A stretch of 5,787 nucleotides of DNA from a virus (lineage: Duplodnaviria; Heunggongvirae; Uroviricota; Caudoviricetes), in the IMG/VR virus record IMGVR_UViG_2690316210_000008. One strand, written 5' to 3'. Under the pieces are notes generated by a model. It saw nothing but the letters and a program-made list of their open reading frames with translations. It made no database searches and was not told the origin of the DNA. Below, piece after piece: positions 1-5,787 of the stretch; position 1 is the first letter of the stretch, and every line of letters begins with the position of its first letter. The position numbers were made by a program, and so were the translations under genes.

Positions 1-109
1 GGCATCCGCATAGTGCGCTGGGTTATCGCTCGCCACGGGAATATCTGTGGCAGCGGGCTTGTAATGGGTTAAGTGATAACAGATGTCTGGAAATATAGGG
101 GCAAATCCA
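1..109 (+). mobile_element. Right terminus (last ~109 bp, including the terminal inverted repeat) of an IS2 insertion sequence (IS3 family); the element body lies upstream of the window
   Basis: Seen: bases 68-109 read GTTAAGTGATAACAGATGTCTGGAAATATAGGGGCAAATCCA, which matches my recollection of the IS2 right inverted repeat ending ...GGGGCAAATCCA. Frame 3 of bases 3-98 encodes ...[25 protein letters not shown], the typical C-terminal tail of the IS2 OrfB transposase. Established: IS2 termini are 5'-TA...CA-3'. No database search was possible, so identity rests on recalled sequence. Confidence 0.8.
3..98 (+). CDS. insD: IS2 transposase OrfB (InsD), extreme C-terminal end; 5' part outside the window
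   Basis: Seen: frame 3 is open from the window edge to TAG at 96-98 and encodes [31 protein letters not shown]. Established: the ...HSALGY.SP.EY... tail is characteristic of IS3-family (rve/DDE) transposases. Only 32 codons are visible. Confidence 0.7.
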
Positions 110-1401
110 CTAATGCCGATGCTAAAATTGATGCAATGCACAAGCAAATCACTACCGAAACAGGTAAAACCGTTCAAGCCTCAGCCGATACTCTCAAGAG
201 TCTGATTGCTACCAGTGAGCAAGCTAGCTCAACTAAGATTGATCAGGTTAAAGCTGAACTGAAAGGCGATATCACCAAAGAAGTTAGCGCCTCCGCTACT
301 ACCCTGAAACAAGCAATTGCTACCAGTGAGGCAGCAAGCGCAAGCAAGATTGATCAAGTTCGGGTAGAAATGGATGGCAAGATTGCTGGTGTGAATCAGG
401 AAGCAGATGTAAAAATCGATGCTTTGAAGGGAACCATTAACAGCAAATATAATCTGGCAGTTAATGCAGATGGTCGCGTGGCTGGTATTCACATGAGCGC
501 AACCAACGATCCGGCGCAACCGACGAGAATCATCTTTAATGCTGATAAAATCGCGGTAGCTCCACAGAACGGGTCGGGGGTATGTCCGTTTGGTATCGAA
601 GGTAACAAGGTTTATCTCGATAATGCCATGATTCGTAATGCTGCAATTGGTACAGCCCAGATTAATGATGCGGCGATTACCACGGCTAAAATCGGCAATG
701 CTGCAATTAACAGCGCGAAGATTCAGGACGGGGCAATCACTAATGCCAAGATCGTAAACGGTGCAATTGATAACGCTAAAATCGGTAACTATATCCAGTC
801 TTCCAACTGGAATGGATCTACCGGATGGCATATCAACAAGAATGGCTCTGCTACGTTCATGAACGCAACCGTTAAAGGTAATATCACGGCTGATTCTGGT
901 ACTCTGAACAACGTCACGATTAACTCTAGCTGTGTTATTAAGGGTATGCTTGAAGCTACTCAGGTTAAGGGTGATTTCGTTAAGGTGATTGGTCGTAAGT
1001 TCCCGCACCGTGATGTTAACGTTGATAATGGTTATGCTGGCTATCCACAAGGTACAGTGACCGTTCGCGTTGAAGATGATCACAAGTTCGATCGTCAAAT
1101 CGTTATTCCGGCAATTAGTTTTGGTGGATTGCGAGCGCGTGAAGGGTCGAACGGTAATACGTTTTACGACACCTGTCGCCTTATTGTTCGTAAGAATGGG
1201 TCAGAGTTGTATAATAGGGCTTATGGCGGCAATACTGGTCTTTACTCTGGTGTTATTGATATGCCAGCGGGTAAGGGTGCTGTAACTCTAACGTTTGAAG
1301 TACACTCAAGCGCAATCAACAACTGGACGCCTAGCACATGGATCAGTGATTTAACTGTAATGGTAACTAAAAAAGCCACTACGGGTATTACTGTTTCTTA
1401 A
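73..1401 (+). CDS. Phage tail fibre / host-specificity (receptor-binding) protein, C-terminal portion; the listed GTG start at 73 lies inside the IS2 terminus, so the native gene is probably 5'-interrupted and native sequence begins about base 110
   Basis: Seen: 442-codon ORF ending TAA 1399-1401. It has two full 37-aa tandem repeats built around a KIDQV motif, five consecutive 10-aa repeats of form I-x-[ND]-[AG]-A-I-x-x-A-K (residues 187-236), and an N/G/T/S-rich C-terminal domain. Inference: this composition and repeat architecture is typical of phage tail fibres. Codons 1-12 are encoded by IS2-derived sequence and there is no Shine-Dalgarno before 73 or before the first in-frame ATG at 136. 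Confidence 0.7.
175..396 (+). repeat. Two tandem ~111-nt (37-codon) imperfect direct repeats inside the tail-fibre gene, with partial units flanking (about 124-420)
   Basis: Seen: AAGATTGAT (K-I-D) recurs at 235-243 and 346-354, exactly 111 nt apart, within aligned units ...[20 protein letters not shown]... and ...[20 protein letters not shown]...; further KID motifs at codons 18 and 114. Confidence 0.8.
631..789 (+). repeat. Five tandem 30-nt (10-codon) repeats encoding I-x-[ND]-[AG]-A-I-x-x-A-K inside the tail-fibre gene
   Basis: Seen in translation: [10 protein letters not shown] / [10 protein letters not shown] / [10 protein letters not shown] / [10 protein letters not shown] / [10 protein letters not shown], then IGN. 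Confidence 0.8.
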
Positions 1402-1420
1402 AAATTTAATTTTAATAATT

Positions 1421-1460
1421 AATCCCGCTTAATTCTTTAGAGTTAGGCGGGATTATTTTT
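1421..1460 (+). terminator. Putative rho-independent terminator after the tail-fibre gene
   Basis: Seen: AATCCCGC (1421-1428) pairs with GCGGGATT (1447-1454) around an 18-nt loop, followed by ATTTTTAT (1455-1462). The long loop lowers confidence. Confidence 0.45.
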
Positions 1461-1507: not shown

Positions 1508-1786
1508 ATGACTGAAATTATATATGGCGGTATCGGTGTTATCGCCTTAATTTGTGGTGGATTATGGAGACTTCACCGAAATCAATTAGCCACAGAAAAT
1601 AGATTGTCGAAATTAGAATCCAATGATGCATTGTTTAATCAGAAGTTTGAAACAATGCAGAATAACCACGATCAGATATCCGAGAGAGTTTATCGCATGG
1701 AACAAACCCTTCACGGTATAGAAAAGAAAGTGGTTGCGATGGACGCTAAATTTGACCAAGTTATCGATTTACTCAGACAAAAATAA
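1508..1786 (+). CDS. Small membrane protein with one N-terminal transmembrane helix and a coiled-coil domain (92 aa); possibly a spanin-like or holin-accessory lysis protein
   Basis: Seen: ATG 1508 preceded by GGGGG (1499-1503). Hydrophobic stretch IIYGGIGVIALICGGLW, then a charged heptad-like segment (LSKLESNDALFNQKFETMQNNHDQISERVYRMEQTLHGIEKKVVAMDAKFDQVIDLL). Inference: this topology resembles i-spanins or antiholins; no sequence-level match was recognised. Confidence 0.6.
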   Translation: MTEIIYGGIGVIALICGGLWRLHRNQLATENRLSKLESNDALFNQKFETMQNNHDQISERVYRMEQTLHGIEKKVVAMDAKFDQVIDLLRQK

Positions 1787-1805: not shown

Positions 1806-1976
1806 ATGAAGAATAAACTTAAGAAATATTTTGGTTATCTCTTGATTGTCGCCCTCACTTATAACGTAGCAATCAGACCTCTGCTTACGTCCTTTGGGCT
1901 TAATCTTCCGGCAATGTCCGTTGATGATGAATTGCTCAGGATGATAGCGGGGGTCTTTTCGTTATTAGGGGGATAA
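1806..1976 (+). CDS. Small hydrophobic membrane protein (56 aa); holin candidate
   Basis: Seen: ATG 1806 with Shine-Dalgarno AGGGGTG (1792-1798); the longer track ORF from 1734 would need a TTG start inside the previous gene. Hydrophobic segments YFGYLLIVALTYNVAI and LLRMIAGVFSLLGG. Stop TAA 1974-1976 sits 1 nt before the next ATG. Confidence 0.55.
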   Translation: MKNKLKKYFGYLLIVALTYNVAIRPLLTSFGLNLPAMSVDDELLRMIAGVFSLLGG

Positions 1977-1977
1977 C

Positions 1978-2661
1978 ATGGCAATCAGTACCAATAAACG
2001 AAACGCTCTAAGGACTAAGAAAGCGTTACGGCAATGGACTGATAAGGCAACCGATACATTCGAAAAGGCGATAGGGGAAGGGGCGATCTTTGCTGCTCGC
2101 GCACTCCAGAAGAAGATTAACAAGAATGTTGATAGACCTACTCGCTGGACTCAGCAAGCTGTAGGTAATACCAACTACAAGAACCGGTCAGGGACCAGAC
2201 ACCAAATCTTCATCAAGGGCGCAAGGGATAAGGACAAGAAGATCGGGAGTCAGGATGACTATCTGAAACACTATTTCGATGGTGGCAAAATCAATAAGCT
2301 AGTGCCAATCGCTAACGGCAAGGTCTTAGACTCCCACGGGAACATTAAGGCCATCAAAGGCGGTAAGATGATGCGTAACATCGAAAACGGCAACTTCATC
2401 AAGATAGAGAACAAGGAAGGGACTTTTATCATGAAGAAGTATAAGCCTAAGAAATCCCGAACCAAACGCGCTAGGAATGGATCGGCGGTGGCAAAACGTC
2501 GCTTAGAGAAACGCACACAGAAACAGAGTAAGCGAATTGTTGCCGTTAAGTCGGATAAAATTTCTACTCGTTATTCGACGCTAGGATCGTGGGAAAGCAA
2601 CGAAGTAATGATGCTTAAGAATATCAATAAGCACATTAAATCACGCATGAAATACGTTTAA
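1978..2661 (+). CDS. Highly basic Lys/Arg/Asn-rich hypothetical protein (227 aa), with an especially basic stretch near the C-terminus (KKYKPKKSRTKRARNGSAVAKRRLEKRTQKQSKR); possible nucleic-acid-binding or virion-internal protein
   Basis: Seen: ATG 1978 preceded by GGGGG (1967-1971); stop TAA 2659-2661; no cysteine; no hydrophobic segment. The function is inferred from composition only. Confidence 0.6.
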   Translation: MAISTNKRNALRTKKALRQWTDKATDTFEKAIGEGAIFAARALQKKINKNVDRPTRWTQQAVGNTNYKNRSGTRHQIFIKGARDKDKKIGSQDDYLKHYFDGGKINKLVPIANGKVLDSHGNIKAIKGGKMMRNIENGNFIKIENKEGTFIMKKYKPKKSRTKRARNGSAVAKRRLEKRTQKQSKRIVAVKSDKISTRYSTLGSWESNEVMMLKNINKHIKSRMKYV

Positions 2662-2702: not shown

Positions 2703-3050
2703 ATGGCTAAAAATATTTTCACTGAATTTCCTACTTATCCGGTCGATCAGCTTTCCGGTATTTTTATTAATGGCATTAGCCCTGAATCAATGACCTATGA
2801 TTTTGAGGCGAAGAGAGTCCAACATAAACAATTCAAGCAGATGATCCGCGATGATGGTAATGGGCTAGTGTTTTGTGTTGCGACACTCGCTAAACGTCCT
2901 AAGTATCGCTTTCGTGTAGGGCAGGAGATTGATGTAGTTAATCCTTACAACTTCAATTGTATTGGCGATGCACGAGCGGTATGTGTAGGCACAACTAACT
3001 ACTATATCAAGGGACTCCGCTTTACCGGGTATCTCTTCCAGTACCTTTAA
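2703..3050 (+). CDS. Hypothetical protein (115 aa), no recognisable domain
   Basis: Seen: ATG 2703 with GGGGGG 6 nt upstream is preferred over the track start at ATG 2688, which has no Shine-Dalgarno. Stop TAA 3048-3050. Protein MAKNIFTEFPTYPVDQLSGIF... has no motif I recognise. Confidence 0.55.
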   Translation: MAKNIFTEFPTYPVDQLSGIFINGISPESMTYDFEAKRVQHKQFKQMIRDDGNGLVFCVATLAKRPKYRFRVGQEIDVVNPYNFNCIGDARAVCVGTTNYYIKGLRFTGYLFQYL

Positions 3051-3059
3051 GGGGGTAAT

Positions 3060-3413
3060 ATGATCTCTCGTTACTTTCGACGTAAAGAATTTGAATGCAA
3101 ATGTGGGAAGTGCGGACAGGATACCGTAGACGCTGAATTACTGGCAATTCTTGAGGATGTACGCGAATACTTCGGGAAACCAGTAGTTATTAACAGTGCT
3201 AACCGTTGTCCGGCACACAATAAGAAAGTTGGTGGCGCTTCTCGTTCGATTCATATCACGGGCAAGGTCGCAGATATTGTAGTGAAAGGTGTCTCTCCTG
3301 ATATCGTTCACTCTTATCTTGATAGCAAATATCCCGATCAGTATGGTTTAGGCAAATACAAAACCTTTACGCATATCGATTCTAGAGGATATAAGGCTAG
3401 ATGGAATGGATAA
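3060..3413 (+). CDS. Zinc metallopeptidase of the peptidase M15 (M15A/DUF882-like) family; probable phage endolysin (peptidoglycan peptidase)
   Basis: Seen: ATG 3060 preceded by GGGGG (3051-3055). Motifs RRKEFECKCGKCG near the N-terminus, SIHITGKVAD (His-x6-Asp) and THID. Established: H-x6-D plus a downstream H-x-D/H is the zinc-binding signature of M15 peptidases, a family that includes phage endolysins. No signal peptide is evident, so export would need a holin. Confidence 0.8.
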   Translation: MISRYFRRKEFECKCGKCGQDTVDAELLAILEDVREYFGKPVVINSANRCPAHNKKVGGASRSIHITGKVADIVVKGVSPDIVHSYLDSKYPDQYGLGKYKTFTHIDSRGYKARWNG

Positions 3414-4106
3414 AATTAAAGCGCCTCTAGTGGGCGCTTTTTTGTTTTTTTCACGAGGCTGTTTACACGCAGATTGCCATGTACTTACAACAATCAGGCG
3501 ATCGCCTACATGCTTACTAGTACCACTCATGATAGTATGAATTGCCTCATAAGGAAACTGGCGATAATCAACAAAATCATCACGCATTTGCAGCACTAGC
3601 GACGTGGTAGGAACGATGATCAGCACTTTCCCTTCATAGTTCTCTAAGTACCAGCGAGACAACATACAAGCAATCGCAGATTTACCAGCGGACGTAGGCA
3701 AAACTAACATTCCACGTTTATGATGAATACCTTCAAAGACAGCCTTTGATTGATACCAATGCGGGGTGATCCTGTTAGCACCGGAATATAATTCCAGATC
3801 ATTACACCATTTTGTAATTTCTTCTTCTGTAACTTGTTCTTTTTCGAATAAGCGAGGGTCTACCCATACGCTATATCCCATATTTTTAGCGAAGATTCCC
3901 ACGGTTTTAGTTAGGCCGATTGGTAGTCTATTTTCATAGGTAAAAAGTCTTATGCGACCATCCCAATTGGAATACTTAAATTTTTTGCTAAATCTAGCTC
4001 CCTCAACTTCAAAGGAAAAGTAATCCCTTAGTTCCATCGCTATAGAATCAGAGCAATCAATTTTAACGAAACTATAGTCTTGAAAATGAATTTTAATATC
4101 TGGCAT
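3348..4106 (-). pseudogene. uvsW: N-terminal ~220 codons of a T4 UvsW-type SF2 DNA helicase, truncated after motifs I and Ia; the final ~33 codons are unrelated read-through into the antisense of the terminator and endolysin 3' end
   Basis: Seen: P-loop motif LPTSAGKS and motif Ia VLIIVPTTSL are present, but no DExH box or later motifs; the ORF ends ...STWQSACKQPRE then KNKKAPTRGALILSIPSSLISSRIDMRKGFVFA*. Recalled: the N-terminus (MPDIKIHFQDYSFVKIDC...WDGRIRL...PHWYQ..AVFEG) closely parallels T4 UvsW as I remember it, where DECH follows roughly 10 residues after KQPKEW. The likely start is ATG 4104-4106 (Shine-Dalgarno GGAG 8 nt upstream, overlapping the upstream stop as TAATG), not the track's GTG at 4115. 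Confidence 0.7.
3418..3450 (+). terminator. Strong rho-independent terminator after the peptidase gene, likely bidirectional
   Basis: Seen: AAAGCGCC (3418-3425), 7-nt loop TCTAGTG, GGCGCTTT (3433-3440), then TTTTTTGTTTTTTT to 3450. On the minus strand the same hairpin is followed by TTTAATTTTAT. Confidence 0.8.
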
Positions 4107-4675
4107 TAGTTCCACTCCACACTTGCAATATTCTTGATGTTATTCACTTCCTTCTCATTGAAAACGAATGTCTCTGTTTTGCCGTATTCAATCCCGCCTA
4201 TACCTACATCCAGTAATCTCTTGATTGCTCTTTCAGTGGCTAGTGCATGTTTCATTGATGGCATTTCACCAGCGTAGACAATATCAAAGTTATGACCGGG
4301 ATTGCGTACACCCAGATTAATGCGTCGCTTGATGATTGACTTTGTTACACCAAATTTACCAATATCCCCTGATTTCATTACATAGAGATAAGGCACACCC
4401 GCTTTATATTGAAAGTAATCACTTTTGAGACAAGCACAGCGTTTACCTTCATTAAGCAGGTTAGTAGCTGATTTGTCGGCTCTATTACCACATCGGGTAC
4501 ATGTAAGAGCAATTCTTGAATGAAGCCCTTTAAACTCACCCAGAAAGCCATGAAAGACTAACGGTAAGTCATTATCTTTGATGTGAGTCAGAATGCGTTG
4601 TTCTAATGCCGATGGAGTTACAGCACGGGAGGATTTAGGAGTAAAAACAATATCTTTAGCCATTACTGGAATCAT
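4106..4675 (-). CDS. Protein with a Cys-rich zinc-ribbon-like segment and a C-terminal T5orf172/GIY-YIG-superfamily-like domain (189 aa); homing-endonuclease-like selfish gene candidate
   Basis: Seen: ATG 4673-4675 with GAGGT 4 nt upstream; stop TAA 4106-4108. Motifs C-x2-C-x16-C-x-C (CTRCGN...KRCAC) and YLYVMKSGDIGKFGVT...RR. Inference: the Y-hydrophobic ... K-F/I-G-V-T ... R pattern resembles the T5orf172 (GIY-YIG clan) domain. The N-terminus (AKDI.F ... GFLGEFKG) is paralogous to the gene at 4831. Confidence 0.65.
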   Translation of the reverse strand: MIPVMAKDIVFTPKSSRAVTPSALEQRILTHIKDNDLPLVFHGFLGEFKGLHSRIALTCTRCGNRADKSATNLLNEGKRCACLKSDYFQYKAGVPYLYVMKSGDIGKFGVTKSIIKRRINLGVRNPGHNFDIVYAGEMPSMKHALATERAIKRLLDVGIGGIEYGKTETFVFNEKEVNNIKNIASVEWN

Positions 4676-4830
4676 ATAGACCTCACTTTTTTAACTTATA
4701 GGCATAACCTCAATATGGTTGGTTTGTAACATTAGGGTCGCATATTATACACATCCAGATAGAGAATGCAATAGCAAGACAATTTTCTCTAATAAATAGT
4801 AGTGAGCTTATTATTTTAGAGGAAACTACT
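4676..4830. promoter_or_regulatory. 155-bp AT-rich divergent intergenic region, presumed to hold promoters for both flanking genes
   Basis: Seen: no ORF; the flanking genes diverge. Candidate -10-like hexamers are present (TATTAT 4743-4748, ATAAAT 4792-4797) but I could not pair them convincingly with -35 elements. Shine-Dalgarno AGAGGA (4818-4823) precedes ATG 4831. Confidence 0.3.
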
Positions 4831-5787
4831 ATGAAACTAGCATTTGCCAAAGATATTGATTTTGTTAAAAGAACGAATGGAAAATCACCTTTAGAGATAG
4901 AACAAGAGATAATCGATAAGGTGTCGCCAACCGGATTAATCTATTCAGGATTAATTCTTCCCTTCAAAGGTAGTATGGGTAAGTATCGCGTAACTCACCC
5001 AGACACAGGGGAGTTTAAGGATTATGCAATTAAGCATTTCAATAACTTCACCGGAACAGAATTGTTTTCTACCGAAAAGGCCGCATTAGTCTCGATTAAA
5101 AGGAAGTGCGAGAAATTAGGGAAAGAATTTATAGAATGGGATGGAGGCTGGAAAGGATTTGCAAAAACCAAAGCCGTGATTATGTGCAAAGAGCATGACA
5201 GAACATTAAACCCAAAACTGGTTTATGCACTAAAAGATGATGTTCCTTTGGCGTGTTCCGGTTGTCGCGGCGATACTGTGCACAAGAAATCTAATGGCGG
5301 TAAGACTAGACATGAAGTAAGACAGGAAAAACAAGCAATCATCGAATCCCGTTGCGAAAAGATGAATTACACTTTCAAGGGATTCTCCGGTGATTTACGG
5401 TACTCATATGCAACAAAATTCGTTATTCACTGCAACAAGCATAATGTTACATGGGAATCAACGAAATGCACTATCCATAAGTTTACTTGCCCCGAATGCA
5501 GAAAAGAACAGTTGATTCAGCTTTCCAACCGTACATACACTGATAAGGCTAATTTCTATATTCAATTATTAGATGACAAATTTATTAAATTTGGTGTTAC
5601 CACACGAGATATTAAAATCAGGATGTATGAGCAAACCAGAAAGAGCAATTTTAACCATAAATTAATCTTCCTTCATGAGTTCGCGGAAGGATGGAAAGCA
5701 TTAGACCTAGAGCATGAAGTAAAACAACGCTTTATGAAGTGGTCAACAAAAACTGGCCACCGAGTTAGAGTTTTTCCAGTATCGATT
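4831..5787 (+). CDS. Protein with two Cys/His zinc-ribbon repeats and a T5orf172/GIY-YIG-like domain, paralogous to the minus-strand gene at 4106-4675; 3' end beyond the window
   Basis: Seen: I translated ATG 4831 through base 5787, 319 sense codons with no stop. The supplied ORF track omits it because the ORF runs off the window. Shine-Dalgarno AGAGGA 7 nt upstream. Two repeats ([KR]CEK..., C-x2-H-x15-20-C-x2-C): CKEHDRTLNPKLVYALKDDVPLACSGC and CNKHNVTWESTKCTIHKFTCPEC. Then FYIQLLDDKFIKFGVTTRDIKIR..., which is T5orf172-like. The N-terminus (AKDIDF ... GLILPFKG) aligns with the minus-strand paralogue. Confidence 0.75.
   Translation, partial: MKLAFAKDIDFVKRTNGKSPLEIEQEIIDKVSPTGLIYSGLILPFKGSMGKYRVTHPDTGEFKDYAIKHFNNFTGTELFSTEKAALVSIKRKCEKLGKEFIEWDGGWKGFAKTKAVIMCKEHDRTLNPKLVYALKDDVPLACSGCRGDTVHKKSNGGKTRHEVRQEKQAIIESRCEKMNYTFKGFSGDLRYSYATKFVIHCNKHNVTWESTKCTIHKFTCPECRKEQLIQLSNRTYTDKANFYIQLLDDKFIKFGVTTRDIKIRMYEQTRKSNFNHKLIFLHEFAEGWKALDLEHEVKQRFMKWSTKTGHRVRVFPVSI

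Follow-up and report, generated by a model that had tools for sequence, protein, structure and literature searches.

The window, that is, the whole 5,787-nucleotide stretch of DNA that was analysed, is the right-hand part of a temperate siphophage found as a prophage of E. coli and Salmonella. Its left end is occupied by the 3′ end of IS2, an element of the IS3 family, which cuts the gene of a J-like tail tip protein at about nucleotide 110; only the C-terminal ~430 amino acids of the J-like protein are left. As IS2 interrupts the tail tip gene, this copy of the prophage is defective. The right end of the window is an ISEc52-like end of the IS3 family, and the contig probably ends in repeats.

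Downstream of the J-like remnant is a unit of five genes set between two terminator-like hairpins (Table 1). The genes encode, in order, a protein of 92 amino acids, one of 56, the strongly basic protein of 227 amino acids which is the subject here, a protein of 115 and an M15 endolysin. The 92-aa and 56-aa proteins may be holin-like. The annotated start of the 115-aa gene at 2688 is probably wrong, as its homologs begin at 2703. Tested as a tail terminator, the 115-aa protein showed no detectable similarity to gpU of lambda, the R4C tail terminator or gp20 of RcCronus; it also has no match in the PDB, and no family or fold was assigned to it.

Table 1. Features of the window, with the parts of the 227-aa protein given as the nucleotides that encode them.
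Feature	Position	Strand	Basis
J-like tail tip gene, remnant	73-1401		
Terminator-like hairpin and T-run after the J-like gene; left boundary of the unit	1420-1455	+	
Gene for 92-aa protein, N-terminal membrane segment and coiled coil	1508-1786	+	Conserved beside the family (synteny)
Gene for 56-aa protein, hydrophobic, no Cys	1806-1976	+	Conserved immediately 5′ of the family (synteny)
Ribosome-binding site AGGGGGA, 4 nt 5′ of the ATG	1967-1973	+	Read from sequence
Gene for 227-aa basic protein, tail-completion-like, PHROG 1924-related	1978-2661	+	ORF, composition, dN/dS, family, fold
Residues 3-50, long bent N-terminal helix (helices 3-23 and 27-50)	1984-2127	+	Secondary structure of model, hhalign
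Residues 54-125, conserved core: PTRWT, beta-hairpin 62-79, Q..YL, K..P(x10)GN	2137-2352	+	Alignments, model
Residues 82-91 (ARDKDKKIGS), first lineage-specific insertion, absent from ~180-aa relatives	2221-2250	+	Alignment
Residues 153-186, polybasic stretch	2434-2535	+	Alignment, model, composition
Residues 205-225, C-terminal helix, preceded by invariant GSW motif	2590-2652	+	Alignment, model
Gene for 115-aa protein, conserved immediately 3′ of the family	2703-3050	+	Start judged from homologs
Peptidase_M15_3 endolysin gene, last of the five-gene unit	3060-3413	+	Pfam 9.4e-28; phrog_894 5e-41
uvsW, N-terminal half only	3348-4115	-	
Bidirectional terminator-like hairpin after the endolysin; right boundary of the unit	3418-3440		
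Gene for CapR/T5orf172 protein, 189 aa	4106-4675	-	phrog_681
Longer nuclease ORF, runs into the right-hand IS	~4830-5787	+	Annotated GIY-YIG family in L007
ISEc52-like IS3-family end	5722-5787		

The gene of the 227-aa protein is an intact reading frame of 227 codons from ATG to TAA, with the same translation as in the preliminary description. The ATG lies 1 nt past the stop codon (1974-1976) of the 56-aa reading frame. This stop codon falls between the ribosome-binding site and the ATG, an arrangement which suggests translational coupling of the two genes. Full-length homologs with 59-96% identity are found in the chromosomes of E. coli and Salmonella. The dN/dS ratio against four of the orthologs is 0.06-0.17. 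At 90% nucleotide identity or more, the gene is present in 53 of 5,426 complete E. coli genomes (~1%), and these copies are always chromosomal and always annotated as ‘hypothetical protein’. The reading frame is a real, conserved gene under purifying selection and not a chance ORF.

The protein contains 38 Lys (16.7%), 19 Arg, 18 Asn, 19 Ile and no Cys. With 57 basic (K+R) against 18 acidic (D+E) residues its net charge is +39, its pI is 10.73 and its GRAVY is -0.99. The best 19-residue Kyte-Doolittle window reaches only 0.44, hence no membrane segment is present, and a holin or spanin was rejected due to this lack of both a membrane segment and Cys. The preliminary description of a Cys-free, extremely basic protein dominated by K, R and N is borne out by these values. 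It had proposed calculation of pI and disorder, and in the charge-hydropathy plot the protein falls on the ‘disordered’ side. The gpZ protein of lambda falls on the same side, so a composition of this kind does not discriminate. The especially basic stretch which had been remarked on near the C-terminus is located at residues 153-186, where 17 of the 34 residues are K or R and one is acidic. As the remaining 193 residues still carry a net charge of +23, the basicity is not owed to this stretch alone.

Intact copies of the prophage lie beside ycdX and the csg genes, where a large serine recombinase has integrated them. Their structural genes start with terminase, a W-like adaptor, portal, a protease-capsid fusion and an FII-like protein of 96 amino acids. 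A 140-aa protein, a major-tail-like protein of 277 amino acids, a side fibre, a lambda-V-like tube protein, chaperones and the 809-aa tape measure protein follow, and then a pb9-like distal tail protein, two further tip proteins and the J-like tip. The window begins within this last gene. Outside its lambda-like gene order, serine recombinase and protease-capsid fusion of the Cronusvirus/phiHAP-1 type, the intact prophage (NZ_AP027850) contains T4-type genes for recombination (UvsW, UvsY) and adhesion (a gp38-like adhesin), with endonuclease VII present in relatives.

Only the N-terminal half of uvsW is retained in the window. The junction is at 3446/3450, and the 832 bp deleted here are present in the intact prophage (L007, NZ_AP027850, 23333-24164). 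Positions 3451-3926 are ~95% identical at the nucleotide level to uvsW of RB49-like lytic phages (Krischvirus, T4-type). This points to genes having been exchanged recently between the temperate siphophage and lytic phages of the T4 type. The start of uvsW is flanked by two homing-endonuclease-like genes, those of the CapR/T5orf172 protein and the longer nuclease ORF. Given the fragmentary state of the prophage in the window, this copy of the 227-aa gene probably no longer contributes to the making of phage.

By profile searches, the 227-aa protein is a member of a small family of enterobacterial prophage proteins for which Pfam and NCBIfam have no entry. Both collections were searched with the protein and with the family profile, at E up to 10 and 0.1, respectively, and no domain was found. 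Matches of four family members to DUF6441 (best 6e-4) are below the gathering score, and matches to OXA beta-lactamases (E 0.05) were discarded as short compositional coincidence. A sequence search of the PDB gave only spurious matches. The family is small. Of 1.84 billion representative proteins searched with a profile, only 12 reached E ≤0.001, and a word-indexed profile search returned 25, six of them full-length orthologs. The other members are 177-185 amino acids long, ~30% identical, and are encoded by prophages of Klebsiella, E. coli, Citrobacter, Kluyvera and Serratia; the relatives as a whole range from 177 to 239 amino acids.

A single isolated phage, DCP80, carries a family member, and it was the sole relative found by tblastn among 50,697 phage records. 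The record of Escherichia phage DCP80 (PQ671644), 141 kb in length, is filed under Straboviridae/Gaprivervirus. It holds the same siphophage structural module as the prophage, consisting of terminase, a capsid protein with 43% identity, a J-like tip, endonuclease VII, the family member and a lysozyme, directly beside motA and other T4-like early genes. Either the genome is a true hybrid or the assembly is chimeric; a literature search on this phage gave nothing relevant.

Conserved motifs are spread along the whole family alignment: W20, PT.(W/F)T, Q..YL, K..P, GN, KR.VA and GSW. All 39 relatives have a pI of 9.7-12.0 and at most one Cys, and the 37 full-length ones have a pI of 10.2-12.0 with a net charge of +22 to +44. 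Two segments are specific to the branch of 227-239 amino acids, residues 82-91 and the greater part of the polybasic stretch. The polybasic stretch is mostly a lineage-specific insertion between two beta-strands which is absent from the ~180-aa relatives; at this position the branches of P0028 and P0030 have basic insertions that differ from it in sequence.

The preliminary description recognised no family for the protein. Profile comparison now places its family as homologous to PHROG 1924, annotated as ‘minor tail protein’. Among 26 family members, 21 match phrog_1924 (best E 1.4e-7); the window protein alone gives E 0.0039 against this profile. In hhalign, the family profile matches gp44 of RcCronus (94.7%, E 6e-8), gp49 of R4C (95.1%, E 3e-8) and, most strongly, an alignment of five PHROG 1924-type proteins (98.1%, E 1.1e-13, 116 columns). 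The similarity is confined to the N-terminal 90-116 columns and the C-terminal halves differ. The label of PHROG 1924 is an annotation only, and the virion map of R4C, with 12 assigned proteins, does not include gp49 (PMC10276861).

PHROG 1924 in turn leads to gpZ of lambda. The PHROG 1924-type profile aligns in register with the N-terminal 72 columns of a gpZ-family profile (67.6%, E 5e-5). The latter was built from eight hand-picked gpZ homologs, as an automated scan with gpZ gave only copies with at least 99% identity. The gpZ protein itself matches phrog_1924 with E 1.9e-4, and P0036, a member of PHROG 1924, matches phrog_27, ‘tail completion or Neck1’, with E 5.5e-3. Within the 227-aa protein it is the N-terminal helical part, residues 3-50, which aligns with the PHROG 1924 proteins and, transitively, with the N-terminus of gpZ. 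Direct comparison gave no signal: Minor_tail_Z (PF06763), HK97-gp10_like (PF04883), NCBIfam, phrog_27 and phrog_5 do not match the family, and hhalign detected no similarity of the family to lambda gpZ, whether gpZ was entered alone or as the profile of its own family. When the family and its relatives of the PHROG 1924 type were merged into one alignment, the comparison with the gpZ-family alignment was again negative. The link to gpZ, which passes through PHROG 1924 and is of moderate strength (68%), weakly suggests a common origin.

An AlphaFold2 model of the 227-aa protein, computed from an alignment of 26 sequences, has a pLDDT of 70 and a pTM of 0.59. It consists of a bent N-terminal helix, a beta-hairpin (62-79), short helices with further strands, the polybasic loop and helix, and a C-terminal helix (205-225). 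P0011, a relative of 179 amino acids without the insertion, was modelled with the same order of elements at a pLDDT of 81.7. The lower confidence of the first model is limited to the polybasic insertion and some loops; residues 153-186 are modelled as a loop followed by a helix at 170-184, with a pLDDT of about 61-75. For both models the best match of the predicted fold among 48,164 PDB chains is a solved tail completion protein (TCP, also Neck1), and the elements of the TCP fold (a long bent N-terminal helix, a beta-hairpin loop with a short helix, and a C-terminal helix) are present. The same order of elements has been described for the TCP fold, with gpZ as a version that carries an additional beta domain (10.1101/2024.12.10.627806). 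With 227 amino acids the protein is also within the TCP length range of 112-255. A confident match to an ordered structural family had been named in the preliminary description as the result that would speak against its own reading. Such a match has been obtained at moderate confidence. Foldseek against the PDB returned nothing below E 0.9.

The evidence thus consists of a real and constrained gene, homology to PHROG 1924, a predicted fold closest to that of a solved TCP, and a location in the tail/late block. By analogy with characterised phages, the 227-aa protein is probably a divergent TCP of a temperate siphophage, a low-copy component of the tail lumen which would bridge the DNA end and the tape measure protein. 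To judge from the models, it is fairly likely to share the fold class of lambda gpZ, HK97 gp10, SPP1 gp16.1 and 80alpha gp51. A distant relationship to the gpZ-type TCPs is most likely, and the protein should accordingly be regarded as an ordinary part of the virion and not as a new kind of protein.

The function of such proteins is known from a few systems. In 80alpha, a single TCP is located inside the lumen of the neck, against the DNA end (bioRxiv 10.1101/2024.12.10.627806). In SPP1, gp16.1 aids the joining of tail to head and is required for the DNA to be routed into the cell (PMC11099176). The particles of lambda Z mutants assemble, with an infectivity that is ~500-fold lower. From these precedents we infer a presence in the virion, a position there, a contact with DNA and a role of the insertion. 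As in 80alpha and SPP1, one or a few copies would join the finished tail at a late stage and occupy the lumen where head and tail meet. The N-terminal end of the tape measure protein would be held by the helices and the beta-hairpin, and the strongly basic surface, enlarged by the insertion of ~30 residues, would face the end of the packaged DNA. In this way the protein would assist in the joining of heads to tails and help to guide the DNA correctly when it is ejected. The earlier suggestion of a packaged internal protein in contact with nucleic acid comes close to this mechanism, given the position of the 80alpha TCP at the DNA end; its histone-like and disordered-effector parts do not.

The position of the gene requires separate consideration. 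In siphophages the TCP gene is found immediately upstream of the genes for the tail terminator and the tail tube (PMC11099176, Table 1), a rule already broken in P2 and Mu (PMC11099176) and by the terminator gene of the related phage R4C. The gene of the 227-aa protein is outside this slot. At every family locus examined it is part of the block of structural genes, on the same strand as the J-like tail tip gene and directly behind it. Every locus has the order of J-like tip, a ~95-aa membrane/coiled-coil protein, an optional endonuclease VII, a hydrophobic protein of 56-70 amino acids, the family member and a protein of 100-117 amino acids. Between the FII-like and the major tail gene of the intact prophage no TCP was recognisable. 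The 140-aa gene which occupies the canonical neck slot was tested as TCP or terminator with no signal either way, and could be the real TCP.

The constant company of the J-like tip gene speaks for another reading, in which a virion protein with a TCP-like fold is a low-copy accessory on or in the tail tip instead of the neck. The T5-type distal tail protein of the prophage, with a weak match to the B-domain of pb9, fits this reading, as does p143, the nominal TCP of T5, which was assigned a place at the side of the tail tip, as a monomer (PMC11784142). The parallel with p143 is loosened by its dissimilarity to the family (hhalign 0.2%), by the fact that phrog_3725, to which p143 belongs, is never matched by family members, and by the authors of the T5 study, who themselves question p143 as a TCP (PMC11784142). 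Moreover, the PHROG 1924 homolog adjoins cos/terS and not the tip gene in both R4C and RcCronus, where it is the last gene before cos/terS (35640-36245 and 35320-35919, respectively). R4C, a phage with the same capsid type as the prophage, encodes its tail terminator, structurally identified by cryo-EM, after the tip and fibre genes (PMC10276861). Given this displaced terminator gene, displacement of neck and tail genes is normal in the lineage and gene order is a weak guide. A position at the tail tip is considered unlikely.

Another context is the lysis/late cassette. A non-structural late protein which binds nucleic acid (a regulator, an RNA or DNA chaperone or a nucleoid-condensing protein), and whose resemblance to TCPs is fortuitous or ancestral, would account for the extreme basicity, for the terminator-bounded unit which the gene shares with two small membrane proteins and the M15 endolysin in the window, and for the lysozyme or endolysin gene 1-2 kb downstream in several relatives. 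This link is not conserved, as no such gene is near the Klebsiella locus L008 or the E. coli locus L011, whereas the link to the tip gene is. Searches of Pfam and NCBIfam revealed no domain for binding DNA or RNA, annotations of the homologs name tail proteins, and the best fold match is a virion protein. Such a late protein therefore appears improbable.

It is also doubtful, though conceivable, that a protein with the TCP fold moved to the cassette behind the tip gene, gained a polybasic arm of ~30 residues and acquired a role beyond plugging the tail. A relocated protein of this kind might be ejected on the leading DNA end, for piloting or end protection, or might be situated at the tail tip like p143 of T5. 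If true, the conserved four-gene module formed with the two membrane proteins and the 115-aa protein would be one not yet described.

The disordered, packaged and ejected effector or histone-like internal protein of the preliminary description, which agrees with the charge-hydropathy plot and with the lower confidence of the modelled polybasic arm, is very unlikely, as AlphaFold predicts an ordered helix-plus-sheet fold (pLDDT 70, and 82 in the relative without the insertion) where a hydrophobic core had been thought absent, the conserved motifs extend over the whole length, gpZ shares the same side of the plot, and no histone-like or nucleoid-protein family in Pfam or NCBIfam was matched.

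The divergent TCP remains the best-supported reading. TCPs are nearly universal in long-tailed phages and poorly understood. Cryo-EM has resolved gp51 of 80alpha in the neck, while p143 of T5 was fitted into density of low resolution at the tail tip. The family of the 227-aa protein is likely to represent a diverged, unannotated branch of this known kind of virion protein; it is not covered by Pfam or NCBIfam and is listed as ‘hypothetical protein’ in ~1% of complete E. coli genomes. Its peculiarities (the displaced gene, the polybasic insertion and the conserved four-gene neighbourhood) are minor and change no concept. As the gene is far from the neck genes, the family is useful for the annotation of prophages and for neck-typing by gene order. 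The variable polybasic loops common to the family and gpZ offer a testable candidate for a DNA-facing surface, and an asymmetric re-analysis of the R4C virion data could locate the PHROG 1924 family.

Among known systems, the closest are the PHROG 1924 proteins, represented by gp44 of Rhodobacter phage RcCronus, gp49 of Dinoroseobacter phage R4C and the homolog of Synechococcus phage S-CBS1. These have ~200 amino acids and a pI of 10.4-12. The motifs PTxFT, Q..YL and P...N.[YF]GN are held in common with the family, and in both groups the genes are outside the canonical neck slot. The Cronusvirus-type phages also resemble the prophage in their protease-capsid fusion and in their W-like and FII-like neck genes. 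In contrast to the family, the C-terminal half does not align, the gene precedes cos/terS instead of following the J-like tip, and the two extra insertions of the 227-aa protein, including the polybasic arm, are absent.

Lambda gpZ (PF06763 Minor_tail_Z; phrog_27) is similar in size (192 against 227 amino acids) and composition, with a pI of 12.0, a net charge of +37 and no Cys. It is described as a TCP fold with an extra beta domain, as in the models obtained here, and in both groups variable basic loops are inserted between beta-strands. As the relatives of gpZ also vary by such insertions, the variable polybasic loop would be a family trait and not an oddity. The differences are the lack of direct sequence or profile similarity and the place of the gpZ gene, between FII and U. 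The location of gpZ in the virion is itself unresolved (PMC12617516).

The gp51 protein of 80alpha/SaPI1 (HK97 gp10 family, PDB 9mu2 chain P) is a TCP that cryo-EM has resolved in its position inside the neck. Identity to it is only 9-11%. It has 115 amino acids, is acidic (pI 5.2), has no extra beta-strands or basic loops, and its gene is in the canonical position. T5 p143, with 255 amino acids, is similar in size to the 227-aa protein and is a low-copy protein of the tail with a location at odds with the textbook; the T5-like distal tail protein of the prophage is a further parallel. Unlike the 227-aa protein, p143 is mildly basic (pI 9.9), belongs to another PHROG and has a different predicted fold (PMC11784142).
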